From Escherichia phage A51.2: DNA of 64,000 bases. Location of the stretch: the sequence record ON286973; one strand, written 5' to 3'. Positions 6,898-61,076 of this stretch are shown here, in pieces. The number at the start of each line of letters is the position of its first letter. The first letter of the stretch is position 1. A program made the position numbers and the translations under genes. The notes under the pieces were generated by a model. It was not told where the DNA came from, ran no database searches, and worked only from the letters and a program-made list of their open reading frames with translations.

Positions 6898-6925
6898 AAT
6901 GGCTCACTTTGTTGGTGAGCCAGAA

Positions 6926-9959: not shown

Positions 9960-9978
9960 GGGGCTTCGGCCCCATTTT
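9960..9978 (+). terminator. hairpin GGGGC-TTCG-GCCCC plus T tract between nrdA and nrdB (terminator/attenuator)
   Basis: Perfect stem with TTCG loop followed by ATTTT, 8 nt after nrdA stop. Confidence 0.5.
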
Positions 9979-33663: not shown

Positions 33664-33712
33664 GGTGTTTTTACCTCTTAGTTAATTTTCTTACAACTTC
33701 CCTTCAAAAAAG

Positions 33713-33741
33713 AATATAGCAAAACTGCCGATCCTTGTCAA
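33713..33741 (-). promoter_or_regulatory. sigma70-like promoter (TTGACA-17-TATATT)
   Basis: Consensus hexamers on minus strand upstream of 33663 start. Confidence 0.55.
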
Positions 33742-33809
33742 CCAAGGATAGCATAATTTTTTATGTGATCAAGGGGCTTTATTGCCCCCCTGATCGTGCA
33801 ACTTGTTTA

Positions 33810-34073
33810 TTATTTGTTGCTCATCCAGTTTTCCCAGGCTGCCTGATAATCTGCCTCACTGCGGCGGATCTCTTCTTGTTCTTCAAGGCGGATCTCTTCT
33901 TCCAGGTACCCCAGTATATCGGCTTTTTTGGTCTGGCGTAGCATCCAGTCATCTTTTTTGCGGGTAAAGATCTTATAAGCTTTCTCGCAAACCTCTTTTT
34001 TGCTACCTTTCTGGACTTCAAGAACACGATAAGCCATATATTGAACTAGTTTGAGCTGGTCAAGACGTTTCAT
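33810..34073 (-). CDS. hypothetical basic protein
   Basis: Internal ATG with RBS AAGAGG chosen; ORF-track start 34157 would overlap next gene. Confidence 0.4.
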   Translation of the reverse strand: MKRLDQLKLVQYMAYRVLEVQKGSKKEVCEKAYKIFTRKKDDWMLRQTKKADILGYLEEEIRLEEQEEIRRSEADYQAAWENWMSNK

Positions 34074-34134
34074 GATGTTTACCTCTTTATGCGGTTCTGG
34101 TTTGGTGGGCCTTTTGGCCCGTGTCATTATCTTA

Positions 34135-34407
34135 TTACTTATGGCGGCAGAATTCAAGCGTTTTTAATTGATAATCTTCCTCAGCCTGGAGTACTACCGC
34201 CTCGATCATTTCGTTGGCATTGTTAAAGCCATAACCTTTAGCGAACTCATCCGCGCCACCTTCGTGATCATGTTCTGCGTTCATCGCTTCCACAAAATGG
34301 AATTCCAAATTGTTGAGGTAGGGGCTTGATGTTCCGTCCTCTTTTTCGATGAGATCCCAAATAGCATTAAAACGTGATTCGACTTCTTGATTAATCCAGC
34401 TTGACAT
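34135..34407 (-). CDS. hypothetical acidic protein
   Basis: 90-aa ORF, RBS AGGAGAGAGG. Confidence 0.45.
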   Translation of the reverse strand: MSSWINQEVESRFNAIWDLIEKEDGTSSPYLNNLEFHFVEAMNAEHDHEGGADEFAKGYGFNNANEMIEAVVLQAEEDYQLKTLEFCRHK

Positions 34408-34461
34408 AGTGTTTTCCTCTCTCCTGGTTGTTGTGTGGGCACCTTTGCCCCTTCAAGATAA

Positions 34462-34491
34462 ATGTTACCTCACCCCCATGGCAGATGTCAA
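34462..34491 (-). promoter_or_regulatory. promoter (TTGACA-18-TAACAT) followed by GC hairpin and CA-rich leader
   Basis: Hexamers on minus strand; hairpin GGGGCAAAGGTGCCC at 34437-34451. Confidence 0.5.
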
Positions 34492-34516
34492 CGGTTTTTA
34501 TAGTTCTTATATGACA

Positions 34517-34539
34517 GGCAGGCCCGGTGATTGTCTCCC
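34517..34539. repeat. 23-bp repeat GGGAGACAATCACCGGGCCTGCC (minus orientation), identical to 44142-44164
   Basis: Perfect 23/23 inverted match about 9.6 kb apart. Confidence 0.85.
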
Positions 34540-34628
34540 CCCTGTTCCCAAGTGCCGCCCGTTTAATAAGAATAACAAAAGGGGCCGAACAAGTCAACCC
34601 CAAAATCAGTACCAAAAACACTTTTTAT

Positions 34629-34940
34629 TTATACGGTCCGATCATTGGCCTTTGTCCAGGACCTGGCGATCCGTTTCCCGGTCACCTGGAACGGAGACTG
34701 CATTGTGTGTAATGAGTCCAGCGTAAGGGAGGACCGTTTACGGCGTATCTTCAGGATCGCTAACGTATTGTCCATCTCACGGCCAGGCCCTGGGCGGTAT
34801 GGTGTGCCTCCAGCGTTAAGGTTGATGATCTCATGTATTGAGATCCGGCGTTGTTTTGCTTCCGCATCTTTGAAGATAGCCAGCGGAGGCGCTATGCGTT
34901 GCCGATACCAATCTAAAACGGTTGGCGTAATAGCGATCAT
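34629..34940 (-). CDS. hypothetical protein
   Basis: 103-aa ORF. Confidence 0.45.
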   Translation of the reverse strand: MIAITPTVLDWYRQRIAPPLAIFKDAEAKQRRISIHEIINLNAGGTPYRPGPGREMDNTLAILKIRRKRSSLTLDSLHTMQSPFQVTGKRIARSWTKANDRTV

Positions 34941-35128
34941 ATTTTACCCCCTATGTAGTCCGGTCGGTTTTTCTCTGTCATGCGCTTTAGCAATTCTTGC
35001 ATGTTACTTATGGCTTGTAGTGTATCCCCTTCCAGGCTTGAATCAACATAATCAGGATCGTCTATGACCTTTCTATGATTATGATAACGCAGTACTGCTA
35101 ATACCTTTCTAACTTGTTCGATATTCAT
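34937..35128 (-). CDS. hypothetical protein
   Basis: 63-aa ORF, overlapping start/stop with neighbour. Confidence 0.4.
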   Translation of the reverse strand: MNIEQVRKVLAVLRYHNHRKVIDDPDYVDSSLEGDTLQAISNMQELLKRMTEKNRPDYIGGKI

Positions 35129-35140
35129 TTTTACCGCTCT

Positions 35141-35275
35141 TTAAAACAAGGTGCCAACCGTTTCCAATAGATCACTGACCATCAGGACAATACTGATCAG
35201 CACATGCCTAACCATAAGGGGAAAGAGCGCCAGCGATCCCGCCACAATCCCCAAGGTGATGATTATCTTTCTCAT
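35141..35275 (-). CDS. small hydrophobic membrane peptide (44 aa)
   Basis: MRKIIITLGIVAGSLALFPLMV...; below ORF cutoff. Confidence 0.3.
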   Translation of the reverse strand: MRKIIITLGIVAGSLALFPLMVRHVLISIVLMVSDLLETVGTLF

Positions 35276-35277
35276 GG

Positions 35278-35562
35278 TTAACGGTTTACGTAAGCTTTAC
35301 CGTTTACGGTGATGGGCAGATCTTCCAGGTCTGGATCTTCCTTAAGGTCGCGAGCAAGCTCACCGCACCGGATACCCTCGAATCCGTAGTACTCTGTTGT
35401 GCCGTCATTAAAAGTTTTAGCGGCAAGGCATAAGCGATAAGTAACCCCGATTTGATTGACGGCATGAATATCCGTTAGATTAACCTCTTTTGCCAGCTCT
35501 TTAGCCATTACAGGCGCATTAAGTCCAACAACCAGGGCAACCACTGCGATCATCTTTTTCAT
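35278..35562 (-). CDS. secreted/periplasmic small protein with signal peptide
   Basis: MKKMIAVVALVVGLNAPVMA followed by KELAKE (AxA-type cleavage site). Confidence 0.55.
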   Translation of the reverse strand: MKKMIAVVALVVGLNAPVMAKELAKEVNLTDIHAVNQIGVTYRLCLAAKTFNDGTTEYYGFEGIRCGELARDLKEDPDLEDLPITVNGKAYVNR

Positions 35563-35653
35563 TGTGTCTATCCTCTTTCTGCTACGTTTAAGGCGGCGGT
35601 AACCGCCTGTTTATGCTTTGTTGGTTAATTTTCGGGTATCGGTATAAATTAAA

Positions 35654-35878
35654 CTATGCTGTACGCTCAACTATAACAACGGTTTGAGGGATCTCACCTT
35701 CCACCACTATCAAGGCCTTTTTCTGCGTGATGGATATCTTTACCCGTTGCAGCGTGGCGGTGAAGTCTTTCATTTCGTCACGTGGTGTTTTAGTGCAATA
35801 CCAGATCTCAGGCTTGCCGACCTGCAAGCCGCGCAAGAATTCCGTTTTACCTGTTTTATTCGTGATCATTTGATTCAC
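35654..35878 (-). CDS. hypothetical protein
   Basis: 74-aa ORF. Confidence 0.45.
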   Translation of the reverse strand: MNQMITNKTGKTEFLRGLQVGKPEIWYCTKTPRDEMKDFTATLQRVKISITQKKALIVVEGEIPQTVVIVERTA

Positions 35879-35879
35879 C

Positions 35880-35984
35880 TTAACCGATACCGTGGGAAGA
35901 TAGGATCATGTTAGCCATAGTTGCAACCCATCCAACCGATAATGCCAGGCCAACTACTACAACCGTGAAAATTTTCTCTAACAT
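35880..35984 (-). CDS. small hydrophobic membrane peptide (34 aa)
   Basis: RBS GAGGGTAG; MLEKIFTVVVVGLALSVGWVATMANMILSSHGIG. Confidence 0.3.
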   Translation of the reverse strand: MLEKIFTVVVVGLALSVGWVATMANMILSSHGIG

Positions 35985-36061
35985 GATTCTACCCTCATTA
36001 ATGGCGGGAAGTATTCCCGCGCTATGTAGTACACTTTACCAGATTGTTGACTGTTGTCAAA

Positions 36062-36289
36062 CTAATTTTTACAAGGGATCAGTAAACTTCTTGCTACTGC
36101 TTCGCGTAGTCCTTGACTTTTTATCAGATCTATTGTTGCAGGATGGCAAGTAAAAGCCTTTGACCATTTTTGATCCCCTGGTTTACGGGCAAAAATGTAA
36201 ACTTCCCCGTCGATTTCATCCCAACGAGTATTGCTTGTTAGTTTTTTAAGCGCCATGATGATCTCTCTTTTAGTTGTGAGCGGCATCAT
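36062..36289 (-). CDS. hypothetical protein
   Basis: 75-aa ORF. Confidence 0.45.
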   Translation of the reverse strand: MMPLTTKREIIMALKKLTSNTRWDEIDGEVYIFARKPGDQKWSKAFTCHPATIDLIKSQGLREAVARSLLIPCKN

Positions 36290-36307
36290 TGCCGCCCTAC
36301 GAAATAC

Positions 36308-36335
36308 ATTCTACCCGATTTACAATTGTTGTCAA
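36308..36335 (-). promoter_or_regulatory. sigma70-like promoter (TTGACA-16-TAGAAT)
   Basis: Hexamers on minus strand upstream of 36289. Confidence 0.5.
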
Positions 36336-36341
36336 ACTATT

Positions 36342-36521
36342 TTAACGATAATCATCATATGCTTTATTGACCTGGCGAATATAACATTCAAAAGCTAGAT
36401 CAATAGATTTATATTCACGGATATATTCACCATAGGAAACCACATACATTTCTATAGCTTCCTCATATGCGAGGAGAATAGAATCTAAGCCTACGATCTC
36501 AGTCTTTGCAATAATAGCCAT
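36342..36521 (-). CDS. hypothetical protein (59 aa)
   Basis: RBS AAGAGGA; below ORF cutoff. Confidence 0.35.
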   Translation of the reverse strand: MAIIAKTEIVGLDSILLAYEEAIEMYVVSYGEYIREYKSIDLAFECYIRQVNKAYDDYR

Positions 36522-36571
36522 GATTTTTATCCTCTTTGTGGTTGGTGGGGCTTGTTGCCCCTTTGATTTAT

Positions 36572-36600
36572 ATTCTACAGTCTTATAAGGTCATGTCAAC
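36572..36600 (-). promoter_or_regulatory. sigma70-like promoter (TTGACA-17-TAGAAT) plus leader hairpin GGGGCAACAAGCCCC
   Basis: Hexamers on minus strand; hairpin at 36547-36561 then CA-rich leader and RBS. Confidence 0.5.
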
Positions 36601-36829
36601 TATTTTCAAAAAATTTTTCTGCTGTAATATTTTTCCCGGTAGGGTTCGCTACTTTCAAAATTTTATCATGCACTGGACGCCCAAAAGAATAAGCGCCGTA
36701 CACAGTGCACCAATAATCGCCGTCAGGCTGTACTATTACAGCCGCATAGGGTACGCCTTTTTCGTTTTTGCTGACAAAATAGATCACGTTGCCATTAATA
36801 GCCTCGGCGCGTTTAATTTGTTCCATCAT
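36596..36829 (-). CDS. hypothetical protein
   Basis: 77-aa ORF. Confidence 0.45.
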   Translation of the reverse strand: MMEQIKRAEAINGNVIYFVSKNEKGVPYAAVIVQPDGDYWCTVYGAYSFGRPVHDKILKVANPTGKNITAEKFFENS

Positions 36830-36885
36830 GATGATTTGCCTCTCTTTATTTTCATAATTGGGGGGCCTTTTCGGCCCCGCCAGGT

Positions 36886-37170
36886 TTATTTATTGATAGC
36901 GTGCAGCGGGAAAGGTACGCCAGGTTGATAGATAACTTTTACAACCTCATCAGAGCAAAAGAAATTACAGAATTCGCCCTGATAAGCCTCATCCTCTTTT
37001 AATTCTTCATCAACATACTCAAAAAAGTAGTCAACACTTGGATAATCTTGCCCTGGGTTATAGTCAACCATTGTCAGGACCAGTTCAAGATCGTTGCGTA
37101 GGATATGCATACCCGCTTTTAAGTATTTTGCTTCCATTTCTACTACATCGCCAGCGGTAACAATAGCCAT
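36886..37170 (-). CDS. hypothetical acidic protein
   Basis: 94-aa ORF, RBS AGGAG. Confidence 0.45.
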   Translation of the reverse strand: MAIVTAGDVVEMEAKYLKAGMHILRNDLELVLTMVDYNPGQDYPSVDYFFEYVDEELKEDEAYQGEFCNFFCSDEVVKVIYQPGVPFPLHAINK

Positions 37171-37224
37171 GGTTTTAACTCCTATCTATCCGGTTAATGA
37201 TTGGGGGCCGCCCCCCGACACGTC

Positions 37225-37254
37225 CTATTATCCATATTGTAGGGCTTGATGCAA
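37225..37254 (-). promoter_or_regulatory. promoter (TTGCAT-18-TAATAG) with CAATATGGATAATA motif and leader hairpin
   Basis: Minus-strand hexamers; hairpin GGGGGCGGCCCCC at 37203-37215. Confidence 0.45.
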
Positions 37255-37372
37255 GTACTTCTTTAAAAAATTTTTTAAGCGCCTTGGGGGTAGCTGTAAC
37301 GCTAAAATAATAAAGGCCATGCAACCGCATAGCCTTTATGTGATTATATCGCTGCAGGCCCTGCTAGGGGCC

Positions 37373-37723
37373 TTATTTTGCATTCTTGCTTGTATTGCCG
37401 CCACGGTACCAACGTTTGCGGTGAAAATGGTAATAATCACCCTCGGCATTGAACATCAGATGATTTTCAATAACCAGCTTACGAAGGTGGGCCGGATCTT
37501 GTTCCATTCTTGCCAGATTCCGGCTGTTGTTACGTAAGCGGATAAATTCCATATTCAGGCCGTTGATTGCAGCATGGATGTCAAAGTAACCACCTTTGAG
37601 ACGTTCACGCATGGCGTTAAGCTCAACACAATATACAGATTTCTCACAAATCAAGGTATTAGCCAGGGCGCGGACCTGGGCAAGGGGGTTAAGCTCATTA
37701 AGGTAATATAGTTTTACTTTCAT
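37373..37723 (-). CDS. hypothetical protein
   Basis: 116-aa ORF. Confidence 0.45.
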   Translation of the reverse strand: MKVKLYYLNELNPLAQVRALANTLICEKSVYCVELNAMRERLKGGYFDIHAAINGLNMEFIRLRNNSRNLARMEQDPAHLRKLVIENHLMFNAEGDYYHFHRKRWYRGGNTSKNAK

Positions 37724-37740
37724 AAAATCACCTGCTGAAA

Positions 37741-38049
37741 TTAGTTTGAGAAAACATCGTTCACAATAGCGATCACAATGCCGCCCACCTTGTCACGGTC
37801 AACAATGCACAAATCACCATAGATCATGTGGTAGTCTGGATGATCTTTCACAGAATAGTCAATAAGTGTTTTCTTGTCGTCCAGCTTCGTAACTTCCATT
37901 CTCATAACGATATGAGAATCATCAAAGGCATTATTCCGGAAAGTCATAGCCTGACCACCAGGGCACCCGGTGATCTCCACTTCCACACCATCTACGATCT
38001 GACCATCAAAGAAATAAAGATTATTAGCCTGGATAAACATGTCTATCAC
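37741..38049 (-). CDS. hypothetical protein
   Basis: 102-aa ORF, RBS AAGGAG. Confidence 0.45.
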   Translation of the reverse strand: MIDMFIQANNLYFFDGQIVDGVEVEITGCPGGQAMTFRNNAFDDSHIVMRMEVTKLDDKKTLIDYSVKDHPDYHMIYGDLCIVDRDKVGGIVIAIVNDVFSN

Positions 38050-38086
38050 TCCTTGTTAACTGCGTGGTATTTTAACAGGGTTTAAA

Positions 38087-38130
38087 TTTACTTTATCGAT
38101 GGCCCTGAAGTCAAGGCCATCTAAAAATAA
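38087..38130. repeat. 44-bp intergenic repeat copy 1 (contains hairpin GATGGCC..GGCCATC and TTGACT)
   Basis: Near-identical to 41826-41869 and 42448-42491; lies directly 3' of gene 38134..38334. Confidence 0.85.
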
Positions 38131-38133
38131 ATT

Positions 38134-38334
38134 TTACAGGCCTACAATCTCTTTGATTCGTTTAACTGCTGCCTCAGCGCCTTGGGGGTAGAAATTATGA
38201 TAACCAATCACGCGAGTGATACTAATCGCCGTTTGATGATCTTCATAGTCGCCCTTGAAGATTTCTTGACCGTCAATCAGCACGGCAATTTTTTCTTCTT
38301 TTTTGAAGTTAATAACGCGGATATTGTTGCTCAT
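38134..38334 (-). CDS. hypothetical protein
   Basis: 66-aa ORF, RBS GAGGAG. Confidence 0.45.
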   Translation of the reverse strand: MSNNIRVINFKKEEKIAVLIDGQEIFKGDYEDHQTAISITRVIGYHNFYPQGAEAAVKRIKEIVGL

Positions 38335-38391
38335 CTTCTTTCTCCTCTTCGGGCTTTTGTTTGTGTGGTGGGGATGTTTCCCCGTTGATTG

Positions 38392-38421
38392 TTATTATCC
38401 ATATTGCGGACCGGATTGCAA
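38392..38421 (-). promoter_or_regulatory. promoter (TTGCAA-18-TAATAA) with CAATATGGATAATA motif and leader hairpin GGGGAAACATCCCC
   Basis: Same architecture as the 37225 promoter. Confidence 0.45.
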
Positions 38422-38439
38422 CACCCTGAAAGGGAAATT

Positions 38440-38472
38440 TTTTAAAAAGATAGGCCCCCATGATCGGGGGCC
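38440..38472 (-). terminator. intrinsic terminator (GGCCCCCGATCATGGGGGCC plus U-run)
   Basis: Hairpin followed on minus strand by TCTTTTTAAAAA. Confidence 0.55.
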
Positions 38473-38476
38473 GTTC

Positions 38477-38596
38477 TTAGTTACTTACAGCGATAAAGTA
38501 CATCCCTACGCCTAGCAATATTTCAAGGGCGATGATCTCAAGCCATACCATAACCCGGCGCGCCTTATCGGTACGGGGCTTATCCTTGGTTGTCAT
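38477..38596 (-). CDS. small membrane peptide (39 aa)
   Basis: RBS AAGGGGGAG; MTTKDKPRTDKARRVMVWLEIIALEILLGVGMYFIAVSN; speculative. Confidence 0.25.
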   Translation of the reverse strand: MTTKDKPRTDKARRVMVWLEIIALEILLGVGMYFIAVSN

Positions 38597-38838
38597 CGTC
38601 TCCCCCTTTCTTCCTGGTAGTAGTGACGTGGTTTACAATGGCCCCCAGGAGTACCATCACCACGCACATCCCAAGAAAAATTATCTCCGCTGTTGTTCGG
38701 TCCATTGTTATAAAATTCCTCAAGATCAGGCTTGAAAATAAAGCGTTCGTTATTGAATCCATCACGCCAGGCGGCTGGATTCAAATCTTCACTAAAGGGA
38801 TTAATTAACGTGGCATTATTTAAACGGTTGGCCCACAT
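38593..38838 (-). CDS. hypothetical protein
   Basis: Internal ATG with RBS AGAGGA; region has competing ORFs. Confidence 0.3.
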   Translation of the reverse strand: MWANRLNNATLINPFSEDLNPAAWRDGFNNERFIFKPDLEEFYNNGPNNSGDNFSWDVRGDGTPGGHCKPRHYYQEERGRR

Positions 38839-39187
38839 ATTTTCTATTCCTCTCAAATAGGCGATCCGCCTCAGTTAAACATATCTCATGGGCTTGATCT
38901 CTGGTTTTAGCCTCATCGAAAACTTGTTGTGCCAGGCTGCAGCGTAGGGAGACTGGAAGATCACTATAATAGGCGTTGACAAACGTTTGAGCGTCGTACA
39001 GGTCTGAAAATACTTTACCCTTTCTATTATTCCCCTTGTCAACAATTGCAAGGATAACCAATACAATAGTTGCAACCACTCCCAGGAAAATAGATATAAC
39101 AAACCATAGAAAAGCGGATCTACCCATCTTGCCAGCGATCCAGGCGTTGAACAAGGCAACTACTACAGCCAAAATAATAAATTCCAT
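38816..39187 (-). CDS. membrane protein (two TM segments)
   Basis: MEFIILAVVVALFNAWIAG and FLWFVISIFLGVVATIVLVILAIV; RBS AAGAGGT. Confidence 0.5.
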   Translation of the reverse strand: MEFIILAVVVALFNAWIAGKMGRSAFLWFVISIFLGVVATIVLVILAIVDKGNNRKGKVFSDLYDAQTFVNAYYSDLPVSLRCSLAQQVFDEAKTRDQAHEICLTEADRLFERNRKYVGQPFK

Positions 39188-39251
39188 TCTATGTACCTCT
39201 TTTGCAGTTCTGTTTAACAATAAGGCGGCAAATATGCCGCCTGTTACCTGA

Positions 39252-39632
39252 TTAAAAATTATCGCCGTAAATCTTTCCGCTTTCTGCCCACACCACCACG
39301 CGGGGCATGTTATCCCATACGTCTTGTTTTAGATTTAACGCGTGCAATTCTTCTGTGGTGCTCATACCAGGCACGGGCTGATTGTATACTGCAAAACGAC
39401 CACCTGCATAATCATAAGCTAAAGTCAAATCGCACTGAATCATTTTCTTGATCATGGCGTTGAGCATAGCATTAGCCGCATATTGATCACGTTTTAAAGG
39501 CAACTCTTTGATTAGTTTGCGATAGTTTTCAATGTGATCGCACACTGTTTCACGTGGAAGATCTTTCATATCCTCGCGAAAGGTAACCAGGTTAAACATA
39601 ACGGTGTCAATAGCTTTAGTAGTGTTTTTCAT
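39252..39632 (-). CDS. hypothetical protein
   Basis: ATG 39632 after leader hairpin and RBS AAAGAGGA; ORF-track start 39668 reads through the hairpin. Confidence 0.45.
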   Translation of the reverse strand: MKNTTKAIDTVMFNLVTFREDMKDLPRETVCDHIENYRKLIKELPLKRDQYAANAMLNAMIKKMIQCDLTLAYDYAGGRFAVYNQPVPGMSTTEELHALNLKQDVWDNMPRVVVWAESGKIYGDNF

Positions 39633-39683
39633 GATGTTTTCCTCTTTGTTTTGTGTGGGGCAAGTCATCTCGCCCCTTGAGTT

Positions 39684-39713
39684 TTAATATAGCAGGTTTT
39701 TAAATTATTGCAA
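39684..39713 (-). promoter_or_regulatory. promoter (TTGCAA-18-TATTAA) plus leader hairpin GGGGCGAGATGACTTGCCCC
   Basis: Minus-strand hexamers; hairpin 39657-39676. Confidence 0.45.
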
Positions 39714-39721
39714 CACTTTAT

Positions 39722-40345
39722 TTATGAAAAACTCATCTCACCATATTCATCTACATCAAACCGCCAATCATTGGCTTCAATAAGGCCGATCAGGTTTTCG
39801 GTAGTAAACTGTTCAAGATAGGCCTCCTCAAGGTCTACATAAACCTTGCGGGATAGCTCCCGTACCGTCTCGGTGATCAGCTCTTCCAGATCTTCCACTT
39901 TATTTTCTTGTTTTGCGGTCAGATCTAGCCAGGTAGTATCAATATATCCGCTTACAGTGTTTTCATGGCTGTAATGGCTGTACTTGTCGCGTTCAACACT
40001 GGCTGATAGTTCGCCATCGTGCATTGTGCCGAACAAGTGACGAATTGATCGGAACTTGGTCAGGGCCTTGACTTTACGCAAGAATTTCTCTAAGTCTACA
40101 TTTTCAGCACTAATTGACGCGCCATCGCCTTGACACCAAAAGCCGGACCAATGTACATCGGTATCTTCAAGGCCGTACTCTGGAAAAACCTGTTCTTTAT
40201 AGTATTCAATTACACTTTCTGCAAAAAAGTTATCCCCGCTGTGTTCTTCTCTTTCGCGGACCATTTCAATAGCTTTTTCTTTTTGTTCGTCGGTCAGCAC
40301 GTCGAAAGATAAATTGTAACCTGTGGTAATGTTAACGGTGGTCAT
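39722..40345 (-). CDS. hypothetical acidic protein (207 aa)
   Basis: Largest ORF of the small-gene cluster; no recognised motif. Confidence 0.5.
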   Translation of the reverse strand: MTTVNITTGYNLSFDVLTDEQKEKAIEMVREREEHSGDNFFAESVIEYYKEQVFPEYGLEDTDVHWSGFWCQGDGASISAENVDLEKFLRKVKALTKFRSIRHLFGTMHDGELSASVERDKYSHYSHENTVSGYIDTTWLDLTAKQENKVEDLEELITETVRELSRKVYVDLEEAYLEQFTTENLIGLIEANDWRFDVDEYGEMSFS

Positions 40346-40373
40346 GATATTTTCTCCTATTTTCTTTGTTAGT

Positions 40374-40430
40374 GGCGGGAAAACTTCCCGCCTGTGTGTT
40401 TAAGTATACTTATTGAGATTTACTTGTCAA
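40374..40430 (-). promoter_or_regulatory. promoter-hairpin module: TTGACA-16-TATACT-TAAACAC then GGCGGGAAGTTTTCCCGCC
   Basis: One of three near-identical modules (with 42239-42292 and 42918-42974). Confidence 0.55.
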
Positions 40431-40680
40431 CACTATTTTTTAAATTATTGTGGCGTAAAATGTTCAAGATCTCTTCAACGTCATCAACACGGCGGCAATT
40501 TTTAAACGCTACCAGTTGCCCCAGTATTTTAATCACTGGACGGCCTTGCCAGTGCCCTTGGAGAAAGCGAGCTTTAACTTTATCGGTGGAACTATCACGC
40601 CACCAAATGGCCTTGTTGTTGCAGTAGTAAAAATTATTCAGGACAACATCAACTTTATCAAAATTTTTTAATTTACGCAT
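40420..40680 (-). CDS. hypothetical protein
   Basis: 86-aa ORF. Confidence 0.45.
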   Translation of the reverse strand: MRKLKNFDKVDVVLNNFYYCNNKAIWWRDSSTDKVKARFLQGHWQGRPVIKILGQLVAFKNCRRVDDVEEILNILRHNNLKNSVDK

Positions 40681-40880
40681 GGCGTTTACTCCTTTCTCTC
40701 TTTGATGTGGTTAGTATAGCTAACCTGTTTAAGATGTCAAGCTTTAAATAAAATCACTATCAATGATATTTTTAACGCCATAAAACGGCCCTAAGCGATG
40801 TTTTCAGGTTAAAGGGGGCGATTGCATAGGTGGGGCCTTTTTGGCGCTTACAGGGCCAACCGGGGGCGCTATTCGTAGGA

Positions 40881-40912
40881 TAGAAATAAAAAGCCCCGCA
40901 CAATGGCGGGGC
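40881..40912 (-). terminator. intrinsic terminator (GCCCCGCCATTGTGCGGGGC plus U-run)
   Basis: Hairpin followed on minus strand by TTTTTATTTC. Confidence 0.6.
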
Positions 40913-40920
40913 GTTGGTTG

Positions 40921-41118
40921 TTATTTGCCTTTGTGGCGGTATCGTTCCGCCTGTCGTTCACGTTCCAAAAGCAGGCCCGGTAATTTGCGATCATAATGAT
41001 TCCGCCAGATCTTCCCAAATCTTTTTGGCTTATTCAGTTTATTGTTGCGCTGGCGGCGTTCCGGCAGCTCTTCGGAAGCATGAGATCGCTTTACAATCTT
41101 CTCAAAATTAATCTTCAT
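40921..41118 (-). CDS. hypothetical basic protein
   Basis: ATG 41118 after AAGGGGGG; Arg/Lys-rich. Confidence 0.4.
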   Translation of the reverse strand: MKINFEKIVKRSHASEELPERRQRNNKLNKPKRFGKIWRNHYDRKLPGLLLERERQAERYRHKGK

Positions 41119-41461
41119 ATATTCCCCCCTTGCTAACTTCAATATTGGCCTGAATAGCCCGGATACGGCGCTTTATAACTTCCTGATCTGTGTGATCGTA
41201 TCCCCAAAAGTCTACGATTTTTGCGCCTCCAGCCTTTAGGCGGTATAGTGTTTCTTGCATCTTGTAAGCCGGGATCGGTCGCGGTGTTACCTGGTCGCCC
41301 TTCTCATTCTTGTACTTGATAATATAGTCTTCATTGTCGTTGAATACCCAAAACGGGTATTCTGTAAGGGCGTTGCTATCTTTTTCGTTTTTAGATTGGA
41401 TCTTGTTTACAATTAAAGCCGTAGCAATAGCGCCAATAATAAAACTTGCCCCGCTGATCAT
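41108..41461 (-). CDS. membrane-anchored protein (N-terminal TM)
   Basis: ATG 41461 after AAAGGAGA; MISGASFIIGAIATALIV. Confidence 0.45.
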   Translation of the reverse strand: MISGASFIIGAIATALIVNKIQSKNEKDSNALTEYPFWVFNDNEDYIIKYKNEKGDQVTPRPIPAYKMQETLYRLKAGGAKIVDFWGYDHTDQEVIKRRIRAIQANIEVSKGGIYED

Positions 41462-41536
41462 GTACTTTCTCCTTTCATTGTATTGATAAACTATCTTTAT
41501 AGATGGCCCTGCTACCAGGACCACCGAAAAAACAGC

Positions 41537-41782
41537 TTATTTGACGATACCGACAAAACAGATCCCGCCTTCCCCTATATAGGCAATATCGGTAATTTTA
41601 TAATTTGTCAAGATCCGCGTGTTCAGATCATTAATAAAATCGGTCATCGCGTTGGTGTAGTTGTCTTCCGTGTCTAAGGCATAATCCCAGGTGTAAACCT
41701 TTTTACGTCCGAAGCCTTTTACCATGATACGGGCGCTTTTGGTGTTGGTAGGGGCATAATATTTGGTGATTAGTGCTGCCAT
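41537..41782 (-). CDS. hypothetical protein
   Basis: 81-aa ORF, RBS AGAGGAG. Confidence 0.45.
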   Translation of the reverse strand: MAALITKYYAPTNTKSARIMVKGFGRKKVYTWDYALDTEDNYTNAMTDFINDLNTRILTNYKITDIAYIGEGGICFVGIVK

Positions 41783-41825
41783 GGTTTTAACTCCTCTGAA
41801 TTAGTTCAGTGTTAACAGTATAAAG

Positions 41826-41869
41826 TTTACTTTATTGATGGCCCTGGAGTCAAGGCCATCTAAAAATAA
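41826..41869. repeat. 44-bp intergenic repeat copy 2
   Basis: TTTACTTTATTGATGGCCCTGGAGTCAAGGCCATCTAAAAATAA, directly 3' of gene 41872..42213. Confidence 0.85.
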
Positions 41870-41871
41870 TC

Positions 41872-42213
41872 TTACTCGTTTTCTTCCAGCTCCGCAAGCT
41901 CTTCTTTTGCTTCTTCTAACTCTGTCTGTAGTTCCTGGTATTCTTCATCTTCCTCAATATCCAGGCTGTCGATGTAGTCGCTAAATCCGCAGCGGTAAGC
42001 GATAGGATCTAGCTCCTTGAGGATACGCGACGGAAGAAAAGAAATGTTTCCGATCATAATTTCGCCGTAGATCTCGTCTAACCATTCATCATAGTTTTCG
42101 TCGTACTTGTCCTCGTCGATTTCAAAGTTATCGATCTTGTTCTCAAGGTCTGCGATCTGTTTTTTCAGCGCGGCGATCTGCATAGCTTTTTCTGCGGCGG
42201 TCATAGTAGTCAT
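41872..42213 (-). CDS. hypothetical acidic coiled-coil protein
   Basis: 113-aa ORF. Confidence 0.45.
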   Translation of the reverse strand: MTTMTAAEKAMQIAALKKQIADLENKIDNFEIDEDKYDENYDEWLDEIYGEIMIGNISFLPSRILKELDPIAYRCGFSDYIDSLDIEEDEEYQELQTELEEAKEELAELEENE

Positions 42214-42238
42214 GGTGTTTTCTCCTTTTGTGTGCTCT

Positions 42239-42292
42239 GGGAAGTTTTCCCGTTTACGTGTTTAAGTATATCGATCTAAGTTAGTTTGTCAA
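42239..42292 (-). promoter_or_regulatory. promoter-hairpin module: TTGACA-16-TATACT-TAAACAC then GGGAAAACTTCCC
   Basis: Same architecture as 40374-40430. Confidence 0.55.
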
Positions 42293-42447
42293 TTAAAAAT
42301 TTAAGAAAAATTTTGCAAAACTGTTAGCGCTACTCATTAACATTTGCGCCAGGATGTAACCGACAACGCAAACGATAATAGTTACCTTTGTGTATTGGCG
42401 TGTAGTGCTCATCTTAAAGCCCCCTTTTTTCGCTTAGTTGAGATTAG

Positions 42448-42491
42448 TTTACTTTATTGATGGCCCTGAAGTCAAGGCCATCTAAAAATAA
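42448..42491. repeat. 44-bp intergenic repeat copy 3
   Basis: TTTACTTTATTGATGGCCCTGAAGTCAAGGCCATCTAAAAATAA, directly 3' of gene 42494..42898. Confidence 0.85.
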
Positions 42492-42493
42492 AC

Positions 42494-42898
42494 TTAGTAA
42501 GTTTTCAGTACTTTACCGTCCAACCTGTCAAGCTGGATCTCGATAGCTGCAGAAAACCTATTGTAAACCACATCGCCCATAGAATCCAACCAGTCTATGA
42601 TATTATACACTTGCTCTTTGTTCTTGCAGGTCCGGATCCGTTTCATGATGTAAGCCGGATCAATATTGGTACTCTCGTTGGTGTTCCCCTGTACCTGGTT
42701 TGCCGTATTAGTTACATCTTTAATGGCCTTTACCACCACCTGGAATGGCTTTAAGGTGCCTTTTGCGTTCATCTCACGCGCTTTTGCGGCGCGGTTGTTA
42801 TATGTTACACAACGGCGGCAAATGTTGATCAAATGCATGTCAATAATTTTTTCATCGTTTGCCAACTCGTTCATGATGCGGCGTACGTTCTTATTCAT
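42494..42898 (-). CDS. hypothetical protein
   Basis: 134-aa ORF downstream of promoter-hairpin module. Confidence 0.45.
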   Translation of the reverse strand: MNKNVRRIMNELANDEKIIDMHLINICRRCVTYNNRAAKAREMNAKGTLKPFQVVVKAIKDVTNTANQVQGNTNESTNIDPAYIMKRIRTCKNKEQVYNIIDWLDSMGDVVYNRFSAAIEIQLDRLDGKVLKTY

Positions 42899-42917
42899 GA
42901 TCTTTTTCCTTTGTGCT

Positions 42918-42974
42918 GGCGGGAAACATTCCCGCCTTTTGTGTCTAGTTTACTTGAATTTTGCAGCGTGTCAA
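42918..42974 (-). promoter_or_regulatory. promoter-hairpin module: TTGACA-16-TAAACT then GGCGGGAATGTTTCCCGCC
   Basis: Same architecture as 40374-40430. Confidence 0.55.
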
Positions 42975-42986
42975 TAATTTTTTTTT

Positions 42987-43385
42987 TTATTCGTGGGCAC
43001 ATGTTACAATGTGCTTTTTATAGCCTAGGTGGTCAGCAAGTGCTGACAAAAACTCTTCTTCGTAGATCCAGCCGTTGGCAGTGATCCCCATAGCATTTAA
43101 TGCGCTCTCAAGTGCTGCGTTAGCTTTATCATAACCGTGACCGCTCGCCTTGCCGCCAGTATAGCCGTACTTATTGTTCTTGTTGTCGTGTATCCAAAAA
43201 ACGCAGTAGTAAGTGTTCCCGCTGTCGGCGGCATAATACCGGATCTCAGCTACTTCGTGCAAATTATTGTCATCGTCCAGGCCCACCAGATTATAAGCCT
43301 TGTAAAATCCACGATCACGGCGGCAGTTCTTGACATCAGAAAAAGAAAAGTCTGCATTATCAAAATTAAAGGTAGTGGTTTTCAT
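42987..43385 (-). CDS. hypothetical protein
   Basis: 132-aa ORF. Confidence 0.45.
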   Translation of the reverse strand: MKTTTFNFDNADFSFSDVKNCRRDRGFYKAYNLVGLDDDNNLHEVAEIRYYAADSGNTYYCVFWIHDNKNNKYGYTGGKASGHGYDKANAALESALNAMGITANGWIYEEEFLSALADHLGYKKHIVTCAHE

Positions 43386-43449
43386 GATTTTATCCTCTTA
43401 GTGTCTTTTGTGCTTTTAGTGTATTTGGTGTCGGACTATATGTCAATAC

Positions 43450-43647: not shown

Positions 43648-43943
43648 AAATTTATCCTCTTTACTGGTTAGTGCGGTGTTGTTCACCTTGTAGGGTAATA
43701 ATACCATGATTAACCTTGTTGTCAACGACTATTTTAAATTATTTTTATGATAGAATCCACCTGCCGCCGCCCTGCCAGGTTAACCATCATTTTTTCGTAC
43801 TCTTCTTTATGTTCCAACGCTCCCGCCATGGCCTTTTCAACCAGGGCGATAGCCTCAGCGTCATTAATAGCTACATTTTCCAGGCTGGCCCCGCCAGGTT
43901 GCAGCGGTTAGCGCATCAGGTTAGAAAAATTTTTTGAAAAGTG

Positions 43944-43972
43944 TTGACAGCGGCCCCGCCAGGTGGCACAAT
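43944..43972 (+). promoter_or_regulatory. possible promoter (TTGACA-17-CACAAT) reading into GC-rich element
   Basis: Good -35, moderate -10; no ORF downstream. Confidence 0.3.
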
Positions 43973-44141
43973 ATACCTATCGAAAGGACGGCAGGCACCG
44001 GTGACGGGGGAGACAACCACCGGGGATGGGCGCTGCATAAAATGAGAACGGTTATCATTATCATTTAAAAATTTATGCAAAAAATCCTTGCTTTCTTTGT
44101 CCTGTGTGATACTATAATAACAAGCCGGGGCAACAGGGGCC

Positions 44142-44164
44142 GGGAGACAATCACCGGGCCTGCC
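44142..44164. repeat. 23-bp repeat GGGAGACAATCACCGGGCCTGCC (plus orientation); variant copy at 44008-44025
   Basis: Identical to reverse complement of 34517-34539; preceded by TATAAT at 44114. Confidence 0.85.
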
Positions 44165-44397
44165 CGTTATTCTGCAAACGAGAATGATTATCATTCAAAA
44201 TTCTAAATGAGAACTCCTCGCATTTAATAAATTTAATTAGCACGCTAATTACCCTCCGTAACAATTTCCTATAAAACAGTATCCCATAAAATATTCCCGT
44301 ATAGAAATTTTAAAAATCCATTTCTGAAAACGAAAAATCGATTTCGTCCCCAAAAATTTTAGGCCAAGAGCCGGAGCGATTTCCAGAAAATCCGATT

Positions 44398-44488
44398 CAG
44401 AAAACGAAAAACAGATCGAGTACTGAGAAATTTATCGAGAAAAATTTTCAGAAAATTCAATCTTTGAAACGAAAAACAGATCGAGTAC
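44398..44488. repeat. direct repeats: ACGAAAAACAGATCGAGTAC x2 at 65-bp period, degenerate third copy at 44326
   Basis: Perfect 20-bp copies at 44404-44423 and 44469-44488 in AT-rich non-coding DNA. Confidence 0.8.
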
Positions 44489-44799
44489 CTGGAAAGCTGC
44501 ACCGCAACTTCAAGATAGTGGTTGGATTATTGCTATAAAAGGTCAAGGGTAAGTGGAGGAAGTTCTAGTAGCGAGATGTAAGCATGTGCGGGAAATCTAT
44601 AATGGTGGTCTGGAATATGGTGCAAACGGTAGGATGAGTGATTCAGCTTGTCGCGCCTACTCTGAAAAATCCATTTTAGTTTTCGATCCATTTTCTGATT
44701 TTCTAAGGATTTTAAAATATCCTGGCAGGTAAAATATCAAAAGGAGGAAATCCATTTTAGAAATCCTCCTGATCTCTGGCAACCTGATAACTTAAAATA

Positions 44800-45132
44800 T
44801 CAGGCTCCCAGTGTGTTCTTTCCTTTGTACAACCTTAAGGGTATAGTTTTTGTAACAGTCCATCTCCCCAGCCCTTCCCAGTTCCAGTTGTAGGCATGGT
44901 ACCCGGTTACGCATGCACTGCTAGAGTGGTCATAGGCATAAGAGAACGCTATACGCACCAAATGGAACCAGTCTTTCCACGGTTGTGGTCCGTAAGCTTT
45001 TCTCCAACACCGACACAAACTAAATGTCTCAAGAATAGGCAGGATAACAAATCCATACACCGCCACCAGAATAGCCAGCGCAATGATTGTCAGGAATACA
45101 TACCCTGCAGTTGAAACGATGATCTCTGTCAT
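44800..45132 (-). CDS. membrane protein (N-terminal TM segments)
   Basis: VFLTIIALAILVAVYGFVILPIL. Confidence 0.45.
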   Translation of the reverse strand: MTEIIVSTAGYVFLTIIALAILVAVYGFVILPILETFSLCRCWRKAYGPQPWKDWFHLVRIAFSYAYDHSSSACVTGYHAYNWNWEGLGRWTVTKTIPLRLYKGKNTLGA

Positions 45133-59715: not shown

Positions 59716-61015
59716 CTAAGGCCGGGGCAAGTTTGTAATAACGGAAGCCACCACCACCTTGCCAGTTTACAGACTTAGAAATACCACCTTGATCTTCGCC
59801 ATCGATCACTTTTTCCAAGCGCGGAATAATATGGGTATGACAATGATCACCTAGCTCGATTGAGATCCAGCGTCTTTTCATCTTATGAGCTACAGCAGCA
59901 GTAGTTCCCGAACCACCGAATGAATCCAATACCAAATCGCCTTCTCGCGTGCACATTTCGAAAATCCGCTTCAAAAGCGCTTCTGGTTTTTTCCCATTTT
60001 TGAAACTAACGCCGCCTTCATTTGCTATTCCATTCCAACTAATGTCTGTCCAAACATCAGTTATTAGTTCCGCAGGTTGCATCTCACCGTCAATTTCCAA
60101 AAGCCTATTGGAGTAAAAGACCATTTGCCTACCATTTGCGATATAAAATCCTTCAACATCCTCATTTGGATGTACATAAACCTTATCCCTATCTTTCTTT
60201 GACTTCTCGATAGTTTCTTTTCTCTTTATTTTAGCACCACCACCAATTGCAACAGATTGAAATACACGTTCTGCATTATCAATTGCGAATTGTGCTAATT
60301 CATCATCGAATGTATCAGGCAGTTTTTTCTTGGCTTCTTTTGCATCTTTATAGCCATTGGCCTTTGCAAACGCATCGGCAATACCGCACCACGTCCAATT
60401 TTTATAATGGTCATCCGGGTTTAATAGGTATTTGTTATATCCTGTATCATACCCTTTAGGTATATAGATTTTGTTAAGCGGTTTCTGGGTGCGATCTTTT
60501 GCATATACAAGCAAAAAGTTTGCTGTGGAGAAAACTGTGGCTCCTGTTGCCTTAAATCCCGAAGGGGAATTTGTGGTCATCGATATAGTATTTAACTGAT
60601 TTGCACGACCAAAAATCTCGTCCATCAAAACTTTTAAATACGCCATTTCGCAATCATCTAAGTGAACGAATATTACCCCATCATCACTTAGAAGATTACG
60701 AATTATTTCTAACCTATCCCTCATTAAGCCCAGCCAAATGGAATGCTCCAGGCTATCATCGTAATGCTCAAAAGCCCTCCCGGTATTGAATGGTGGGTCT
60801 ATGTAAACACACTTCACTTTGCCTGCATACTCTTGCTCTAGCGCCTTCAATGCTAATAAGTTATCTCCAAAAATCAGTTTATTATCAAAAATATCGTTTT
60901 CGGTCACTTTCTGGCTGTGGTAAGATTTGCTAGAATCTTCTAACAAAATGTGTGGCTCTAACTTTTTGCGCTCGTTTTTACCTATCCAGGTAAGTTCTAA
61001 TTTGGTTTTGCTCAT
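59690..61015 (-). CDS. beta-class DNA methyltransferase (N6-adenine or N4-cytosine; Type III Mod-like)
   Basis: N-terminal LTWIGKNE, motif IV DPPF, C-terminal motif I DSFGGSGTT. Confidence 0.75.
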   Translation of the reverse strand: MSKTKLELTWIGKNERKKLEPHILLEDSSKSYHSQKVTENDIFDNKLIFGDNLLALKALEQEYAGKVKCVYIDPPFNTGRAFEHYDDSLEHSIWLGLMRDRLEIIRNLLSDDGVIFVHLDDCEMAYLKVLMDEIFGRANQLNTISMTTNSPSGFKATGATVFSTANFLLVYAKDRTQKPLNKIYIPKGYDTGYNKYLLNPDDHYKNWTWCGIADAFAKANGYKDAKEAKKKLPDTFDDELAQFAIDNAERVFQSVAIGGGAKIKRKETIEKSKKDRDKVYVHPNEDVEGFYIANGRQMVFYSNRLLEIDGEMQPAELITDVWTDISWNGIANEGGVSFKNGKKPEALLKRIFEMCTREGDLVLDSFGGSGTTAAVAHKMKRRWISIELGDHCHTHIIPRLEKVIDGEDQGGISKSVNWQGGGGFRYYKLAPALVAKDKSDQ

Positions 61016-61076
61016 CGTTTGGTGCTCTCCTTAGTTTTTTGTGGGGAGGAGGCCTCCCCTTTATACTCACATCTTA

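Follow-up and report, generated by a model that had tools for sequence, protein, structure and literature searches.

Promoter, hairpin and CA-rich leader cassettes in front of small genes of an rV5-like coliphage: candidate 5'-terminal stem-loops

Cassettes of the small-gene region

We analysed a stretch of 64,000 nucleotides from Escherichia phage A51.2 (sequence record ON286973), called the window below, in which small minus-strand genes are preceded by repeated cassettes consisting of a sigma70-like promoter, a GC-rich hairpin, a CA-rich leader and a Shine-Dalgarno (SD) sequence. Megablast of positions 33700-43000 identified the window as DNA of an rV5-like coliphage, genus Vequintavirus; it returned 262 phage records, 63 of which covered at least 80% of the query at 92-95% identity and were Escherichia phages of rV5 type (among them nimi, A6-1, rV5_ev168, Murica and V5 itself). 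The region matches rV5 ORFs 164-204, a run of small genes all on one strand whose products are all annotated as hypothetical in the relatives. The rV5 genome paper places this gene run in transcription unit 10-1-238-164 and counts 33 promoters and 20 terminators in the genome, and is silent on 5' hairpins and CA-rich leaders.

Among the approximately 28 small genes between 33 and 43.5 kb there were 10 cassettes of this type (class A) and four of a second type (class B). A full module was defined as a promoter matching the consensus at 9 or more of 12 positions, a hairpin of at least 5 bp beginning 6-14 nt past the -10 box, and an SD-ATG combination within 50 nt. The minus strand contained 10 full modules; in 200 dinucleotide-preserving shuffles the mean was 0.26 and no shuffle had more than 3. 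An earlier interpretation of the same DNA, the sequence-only reading, had listed eight of the hairpins; all eight were found where it had placed them, on the minus strand, both by reading that strand and in a list of perfect GC-rich hairpins. Modules 8 and 9 were absent from it. The class-A modules of the region, with the minimum free energy (MFE) and z score where noted, are these:

42896..42974 (-), module 1: promoter TTGACA-16-TAAACT, 42974-42947; hairpin GGCGGGAAtgtTTCCCGCC, 42936-42918; leader agcacaAAGGAAAAAGATC; ATG 42898, 134-aa gene; MFE -14.6, z -2.67
42211..42292 (-), module 2: promoter TTGACA-16-TATACT, 42292-42265; weak hairpin GGGAAaacTTCCC, 42251-42239 (-5.5 kcal/mol, z ~0); leader agagcacacaaAAGGAG; ATG 42213, 113 aa
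40343..40430 (-), module 3: promoter TTGACA-16-TATACT, 40430-40403; hairpin GGCGGGAAgttTTCCCGCC, 40392-40374, loop GTT vs AAC in relatives; leader actaacaaagaaaatAGGAG; ATG 40345, 207 aa; z -2.83
39630..39713 (-), module 4: promoter TTGCAA-16-TATATT, 39713-39686; hairpin GGGGCGAGatgaCTTGCCCC, 39676-39657, with one G.U pair; leader acacaaaacaaaGAGG; ATG 39632; MFE -15.1, z -4.15
38332..38421 (-), module 5: promoter TTGCAA-16-GATAAT with CAATATGGATAATA, 38421-38394; hairpin GGGGAaacaTCCCC, 38383-38370; leader accacacaaacaaaagcccgaaGAGGAG; ATG 38334, 66 aa
37168..37254 (-), module 6: promoter TTGCAT-16-GATAAT with CAATATGGATAATA, 37254-37227, 8/12; hairpin GGGGGcggCCCCC, 37215-37203; the least CA-rich leader of the modules; ATG 37170, 94 aa
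36519..36599 (-), module 7: promoter TTGACA-16-TAGAAT, 36599-36572; hairpin GGGGCaacaaGCCCC, 36561-36547; leader accaaccacaaaGAGG; ATG 36521, 59 aa
36254..36335 (-), module 8: promoter TTGACA-16-TAGAAT, 36335-36308; hairpin GGGCGGCAatgaTGCCGCTC, 36297-36278; leader acaactaaaaGAGAG; ATG 36256; z -2.44
35982..36060 (-), module 9: promoter TTGACA-16-TAAAGT, 36060-36033; hairpin GCGGGAAtacTTCCCGC, 36020-36004; leader cattaatGAGGG; ATG 35984, 34 aa
34405..34491 (-), module 10: promoter TTGACA-18-TAACAT, 34491-34462; hairpin GGGCAaaggTGCCC, 34450-34437; leader acacaacaaccAGGAG; ATG 34407, 90 aa

Upstream of nine of the ten hairpins the promoters matched the sigma70 consensus at 9-11 of 12 positions, with A/T runs before the -35 box, and the tenth (37215) matched at 8. 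The sequence CAATATGGATAATA, said to mark a separate promoter class, was present exactly twice (37239-37226 and 38406-38393). Three modules described as nearly identical do form a repeat family (40360-40411, 42222-42273 and 42904-42955), but with an identity of only 62-71% over 52 nt; likewise, the shared TATACT-TAAACAC stretch was found in two hairpin modules, whereas no hairpin follows the third TTGACA-16-TATACT promoter (40740). The palindrome GGCGGGAAnnnTTCCCGCC occupies both 40392-40374 and 42936-42918 on the minus strand, and the repeat finder paired 36013-36068 with 36288-36343 at 75% identity.

Position, folding and conservation of hairpins and leaders

For comparison we used the window and 14 related loci, which together held 127 modules, 85 of them unique. 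A search of IMG/VR with the 207-aa protein gave two close relatives only, and orthologous loci were collected from GenBank phage records instead. In the window, the first paired base lay 9-13 nt past the end of the -10 box. Over the 127 modules this distance was most often 10 nt (52 modules), followed by 11 (31), 9 (15) and 12 nt (13), such that 111 of 127 fell at 9-12 nt. Among 82 unique modules, 66 had a pyrimidine as the seventh base after the -10 hexamer and 71 had a purine as the eighth, which matches the usual start rule of a pyrimidine at -1 and a purine at +1. From this promoter geometry together with the pyrimidine/purine signal we predict a single-stranded 5' tail, 3-4 nt long in 57 of the 85 unique modules. 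A stem-loop fixed about 10 nt past the -10 box should therefore form part of the mRNA made from its own cassette, at the 5' end.

When the predicted 5' untranslated regions (UTRs) were folded together with the first codons, the hairpin was the dominant structure and the leader and SD were open in 12 of 12 folds, with z scores from -4.15 to ~0. This genome contains at least 10 different stems of 5-8 bp with loops of 3-5 nt. The 5' arm was the G-rich one in 36 of 36 unique hairpins; because a perfect palindrome reads alike on both strands, this polarity is uninformative as to the strand on which the element acts.

Stem and loop lengths were too variable for a covariance model based on MAFFT, and conservation was measured orthologue by orthologue and as divergence per class of element. 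At ten orthologous loci compared with the window, loops differed in 30.5% of cells and the two stem arms in 4.8% and 7.3%, so that loops diverged about five times faster than stems; promoters differed in 6.7% and leaders in 10%. Orthologues were found through flanking homology rather than through the hairpin itself, and a hairpin was retained in almost every case, even where its sequence was replaced. At module 37215, GGGGGcggCCCCC in the window corresponds to GGAGGTgatGCCTCC in orthologues (GGGGG/CCCCC to GGAGGT/GCCTCC), with a compensatory change of G-C to A-U; at 36020, GCGGGAAtacTTCCCGC (GCGGGAA..) corresponds to GGGCG...CGCCC; and at 34450, GGGCAaaggTGCCC (GGGCA..) corresponds to GGGGCAAgacgtTTGCCCC (GGGGCAA..) in L018. 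A few single substitutions in orthologues break a stem pair. Since the structure persisted while the sequence changed, the need for a stem appears to be independent of its sequence, and the pattern expected of 5'-terminal stabilisers, conservation of structure and not of sequence, was the one observed: stems were kept, loops varied, and non-homologous hairpins substituted for one another. Note that at 40392-40374 and 42936-42918 the loops were reverse-complemented relative to orthologues (GTT/AAC and TGT/ACA, as compared with L001, L007 and L014-L018), which indicates that the loop has flipped, at the DNA level, inside a perfect palindrome.

The architecture recurred in related genomes, as the sequence-only reading had proposed to check. 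The orthologous stretch contained 5-8 modules in each of ten Vequintavirus loci. In the distant genera Phapecoctavirus and Justusliebigvirus it was kept with 9-16 modules per locus, and the module 8 cassette itself was also present there. In the other subfamily, Stephanstirmvirinae, the loci were more uniform (ESCO5 with 9 modules, dw-ec with 16, alia with 13 and A150 with 13), two stem types, GGCGGGAA(A)nnn(T)TTCCCGCC and GGGCGGCAnnnnTGCCGCTC, being dominant.

The segments between hairpin and SD were CA-rich, as first described. They contained 57% A, 28% C, 7% G and 8% T (n=156), or 85% A+C, as compared with 32/20/23/25 for the strand as a whole. Over the 14 nt that precede the SD, T made up 6% in module genes, 26% in 35 other minus-strand genes and 28% in 55 plus-strand genes; the depletion of T is thus particular to the module genes. 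ACA occurred in 10 of 12 leaders and was unpaired in the MFE folds. The SD was strong (GAGG or AGGAG) and had an A-rich spacer, of which the last three bases before the start codon were ATC or ACC in 9 of 12 cases. As a separate observation, the early-gene initiation regions of the minus strand between 33000 and 44000 form a repeat family, GAGGA(A/T)AAAAYATC-ATG (D3, D4, D9), that includes genes with no hairpin module.

Read on the minus strand, none of the ten class-A hairpins is followed by a U-/T-tract, and a terminator scan of that strand called 0 of the 10; the same scan called true terminators nearby at 40912, 38472, 39242, 37339, 34601 and 33225. Given the composition of the leader and the lack of a U-tract after the stem, we do not regard these hairpins as intrinsic (Rho-independent) terminators. 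Antisense termination was also dismissed as a role for the hairpins in general, since only about 3 of 10 have a T-rich tail when read on the plus strand. The stem itself is generic. In 2.9 million viral contigs GGCGGGAAnnnTTCCCGCC occurred 114 times, 76 times as a terminator with a T-run and only 3 times in a promoter-hairpin-leader context, these three on contigs of 137-153 kb, the size class of rV5/phi92; what is special here is therefore the position of the stem and what comes after it. The flank ...gtttagtgtaaaag / tttttttgtttaa is common to many copies of GGCGGGAAnnnTTCCCGCC in unrelated viral contigs (L022-L134, IMG/VR), suggesting a single abundant phage group.

Partial cassettes, class-B repeats and recombination junctions

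Parts of the class-A cassette also occur separately, and the same layout was found outside the region; these are listed here together with the class-B repeats:

34071..34120 (-): hairpin GGGCCaaaaGGCCC, 34120-34107, with leader accaaaccagaaccgcataaaGAGG and ATG 34073, and no recognisable promoter
43383..43446 (-): promoter TTGACA-17-TACACT with CA-rich leader aaaagcacaaaagacactaaGAGG, no hairpin
40740-40713 (-), P40740: promoter TTGACA-16-TATACT with a CA-rich leader, no hairpin
61013..61059 (-): hairpin GGGGAGGcctCCTCCCC, 61059-61043, leader acaaaaaactAAGGAG, ATG 61015 of a 441-aa gene, z -2.31; only a weak promoter match
38085-38135, 41489-41539, 41824-41874 and 42446-42496 (-): class-B cassette, four copies of the 51-nt repeat TTATTTTTAGATGGCCTTGACTTCAGGGCCATCAATAAAGTAAAC before small genes

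Further promoter-less hairpins lie at 36878 and 35608. The elements of the cassette are therefore separable, since hairpin-less promoters with CA-rich leaders and promoter-less hairpins both occur.

The class-B repeat consists of an inverted repeat, GATGGCC-N10-GGCCATC, around a -35-like TTGACT, followed by a TAAAGT or TAAACT -10 box. Its copies interleave with the class-A modules over 38085..42496 (-). In phage Murica the repeat is annotated as a terminator, although no T-run follows the stem; from its sequence it looks like an operator-bearing regulated promoter or a classical promoter-early stem-loop (PeSL), the cassette known from T4-type phages. The IMG/VR relative L006 lacks exactly 574 bp between two class-B copies. 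Apart from class B, only one stem-loop overlaps a -35 box, namely the terminator-like hairpin GGGGTTGACTTGTTCGGCCCC + TTTTGTT at 34601-34581 (-), whose loop holds TTGACT; at this overlap of terminator and promoter lies an indel breakpoint, 34580, that recurs in 8 of 10 relatives.

BLAST breakpoints between the window and its relatives fell within cassettes at 36004/36291, 36326, 40760, 34083-34104 and 41872/42446, with the caveat that indels of whole genes must end in intergenic DNA anyway. In phage C12 the whole 36020-type cassette, from promoter through hairpin and leader to the SD, precedes another gene, and the gene that follows this cassette in the window sits behind a different one. In MiataMamis a junction splits a hairpin in half, and in rV5 the extra ORF166 is flanked by a duplicated leader, at the site corresponding to 34120-34071 of the window.

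Several other elements of the window were noted. The 17-mer GGGAGACAAYCACCGGG occurs three times where none is expected, at 34539-34523 (-), 44008-44024 (+) and 44142-44158 (+), around each copy, about 45 nt of non-coding DNA are GC-rich and predicted to fold alike (z -1.5 to -3.3); promoter-like sites lie beside the copies, and Rfam gave no match. About 0.9 kb at ~43900-44800 is gene-free (the "non-coding" box of the rV5 paper) and carries a 52-nt direct repeat three times (44305, 44379 and 44444) and other short repeats; this iteron-like arrangement may be a replication origin. In the plus-strand block, two hairpins lie 2-6 nt past TATAAT boxes, at 6900-6922 (TGGCTCAC...GTGAGCCA) and 9960-9973 (GGGGCttcgGCCCC); they have no CA-rich leaders, and their layout is unlike that of the early cassettes.

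Interpretation and relation to known systems

The reading that we favour, with a little better than even confidence, is that class A is a modular cassette for early-gene expression that combines a stabilising 5'-terminal stem-loop with an ACA/CA-rich translation enhancer and, like the PeSLs, also serves as a recombination site. According to this proposal, host sigma70 RNA polymerase would start about 8 nt past the -10 box, producing a transcript with a tail of 2-5 nt followed by a stable GC stem-loop. The stem-loop would work in the RNA as a sequence-independent 5'-terminal stabiliser, hindering attack by RppH and RNase E that depends on the 5' end. RNase E prefers single strands that contain U. 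The A/C-rich leader, with its ACA motifs and scarce U and G, would be unstructured and offer few RNase E sites, and it would enhance loading of the 30S subunit onto the strong SD with its A-rich spacer. Being repeated, the cassettes could also act as sites of homologous recombination at which small genes behind them are inserted, deleted or swapped. We infer the start sites, the action at the RNA level, the stabilisation of mRNA and the enhancement of translation from sequence features. A 5'-end RNA hairpin fits best because of the fixed spacing from the -10 box, the start signature, the conservation of structure but not of sequence, and the lack of a U-tract. The sequence-only reading had likewise concluded that the cassettes imply a shared leader-RNA element for stability or translational control, and this agrees with the geometry of the modules, the conservation of their structure and the composition of their leaders.

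Several observations weigh against this proposal. Literature searches found start-site, transcriptome or half-life data for no rV5-like phage, and placement of the hairpin within the mRNA rests on consensus promoters. Two hairpins were weak or no better than shuffles (z ~0). The imperfections in stems were evenly divided between G.U and A.C (8 vs 8), which is neutral as to whether the element acts as an RNA strand or as DNA. RppH-type enzymes act on 5' ends with 2-3 or more unpaired nucleotides, and tails of the predicted length, 3-4 nt and up to 7 nt, are about as long as a 5' hairpin can have in front of it and still protect (PMC3997798). The cassette is also not obligatory, as its parts occur separately (43446 and 40740; 34120, 36878 and 35608). 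Finally, the loop inversions and cassette swaps are evidence of processes at the DNA level, and gene conversion among copies may mimic purifying selection on stems.

The even division between G.U and A.C also suits an explanation in which the palindromes are DNA operators, bound at about +4 to +22 by a dimeric DNA-binding protein of the phage that turns early transcription off or sets its timing, the hairpin in the RNA being incidental. Perfect inverted repeats do lie here where repressors commonly act, the half-site GGCGGGAA occurs 3-4 times in the window, two stem types dominate ESCO5 and alia, variation and flipping of loops are compatible with an operator spacer, and the adjacent class-B repeat also resembles an operator over a -35 box. 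We nevertheless regard operators as unlikely. At least 10 stems with arms of 5-8 bp and spacers of 3-5 nt are found in this one genome, with no half-site common to them; the palindromes at orthologous sites are unrelated to each other, which leaves no one recognition sequence conserved; and the stems are generic GC stems of the terminator type that are found in unrelated viruses.

An explanation that we likewise consider unlikely assigns the stem-loops a role in upstream read-through, as attenuators or terminators, or as barriers to 3' exonucleases that would stabilise the upstream mRNA and insulate the cassettes. Consistent with this, 7 of 10 modules follow an upstream stop codon with no intervening terminator, four hairpins were picked up on the opposite strand as loose terminator-like sites, and there is a precedent in the PeSL211/210 stem-loop, which, when placed between a strong promoter and lacZ, cut expression to about the same extent as the rrnB T1 terminator (PMC2839356). 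However, no hairpin is followed by a U-tract, the leaders being 8% T, whereas GGCGGGAAnnnTTCCCGCC does have a T-run where it serves as a terminator and genuine T-run terminators stand nearby (40912, 38472, 39242 and 37339); T-rich antisense tails are limited to about 3 of 10 modules; and a read-through role leaves unexplained the tight spacing from the -10 box, the positions of PeSL stem-loops being variable. The least probable explanation, that the repeats exist chiefly as substrates of recombination or as selfish palindromic cassettes spread by gene conversion, with hairpin and CA tract having no role in expression, accounts for the breakpoints at hairpins, leaders and repeats, the presence of one cassette before different genes, the inverted loops and the hairpins cut short at MiataMamis junctions, but not for the unvarying distance from the -10 box, the pyrimidine/purine signal at bases 7 and 8, the depletion of U and G in leaders that differ in sequence, or the pairing kept through non-homologous replacement of hairpins.

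Under the expression-cassette proposal two further roles can be imagined, both of which we consider quite unlikely: that the cassettes are a mark separating phage from host mRNA or, as a second possibility, that the CA-rich leaders engage or titrate host GcvB/Hfq. The rV5-type phages are reported to encode a protein like Srd, rV5 gp11 (PMC3606486); in T4, Srd stimulates RNase E to act on host mRNA (PMC4980113). A 5' hairpin and a nearly U-free leader could make early phage transcripts poor substrates for RNase E while host mRNAs are destroyed. Enhancers of the yifK/dppA type are target sites of GcvB (PMC3879156), and with a GcvB sequence verified in E. coli and by Rfam the module leaders gave a median R1 pairing energy of -15.7 as compared with -11.6 kcal/mol for other leaders (p=0.004). 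GcvB pairing was rejected as a supported role and is offered as speculation, as the energies were only modestly better and driven by composition, with module 34450 giving the sole clean duplex.

If the expression-cassette proposal is correct, phages of this group have arrived at a standard, compact and portable unit of promoter, 5' stabiliser, enhancer and SD for any small accessory gene, and recombination between copies shuffles the genes, such that expression and genome plasticity are joined in one element. The PeSL idea would then apply outside the T4-type phages as well, to a layout whose action is in the transcript. In practical terms, annotation gains for more than 260 sequenced rV5-like phages used in therapy and biocontrol, where the hairpins are unannotated and class B is labelled a terminator in at least one (Murica), and the cassettes would provide natural, strong 5' UTR parts for engineering of E. 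coli.

Each part of the cassette is of a known kind, and the fixed, predicted transcript-internal layout across two subfamilies is new, being undescribed in the searchable literature; literature searches on rV5, phi92, phAPEC8 and PVP-SE1 found no prior description of these hairpins. A scan of 30-64 kb against Rfam 15 at a permissive threshold gave a sole match, RF03091, which at 32.8 bits (E 0.93) was below the gathering score of 94.4. The GC stems are identical to those of Rho-independent terminators, from which the cassettes differ in that the stem lies downstream of a promoter, a CA-rich leader and SD follow, and there is no U-tract. The leader of phage T7 gene 10 carries a 5' stem-loop. 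Stem-loops at the 5' terminus stabilise E. coli mRNAs against decay that depends on the 5' end (Emory 1992; Bouvet and Belasco 1992; Arnold 1998; as listed in PMC3997798), and the cassettes resemble the stabilisers of the ompA 5' UTR and papA (PMC3997798) in having a short, stable hairpin a few nucleotides from the predicted 5' end with an open ribosome-binding region after it. Unlike ompA and papA, the element, whose stabilising role we propose, recurs serially within a single genome, on about 10 or more short transcripts. The leaders resemble the ACA and C/A-rich enhancers of yifK and dppA (Yang 2014, PMC3879156), A/C-rich ACA stretches directly before the SD in the same host, E. coli, where ACA motifs upstream of the SD raise translation (PMC3879156).

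The closest comparison is with the PeSLs of RB49/phi1, PST and nt-1 (Arbiol 2010, PMC2839356; Comeau 2014, PMC4122927), to which the sequence-only reading had likened the modules. Both systems combine a stop codon, AT-rich DNA, a sigma70 promoter, a polyG/polyC stem-loop and an SD-ATG, are crowded among small orphan early genes, and contain within their cassettes the junctions of indels and gene swaps between close relatives. As an analogy the likeness is good. The layout differs in the stem-loop, whose position in PeSLs is variable, mostly inside the promoter, and which has been shown or argued to be a terminator; in only one of the five PeSL subclasses is it downstream of the -10 box, whereas in class A it is fixed 9-12 nt past that box and has no U-tract. 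The layout nearest to that of classical PeSLs is class B. The CA-rich leader, poor in U and G, is a consistent extra element relative to PeSLs. As the lineage is Vequintavirus / Stephanstirmvirinae and not Tevenvirinae, we regard the rV5-type cassettes as analogues rather than homologues of the PeSLs.

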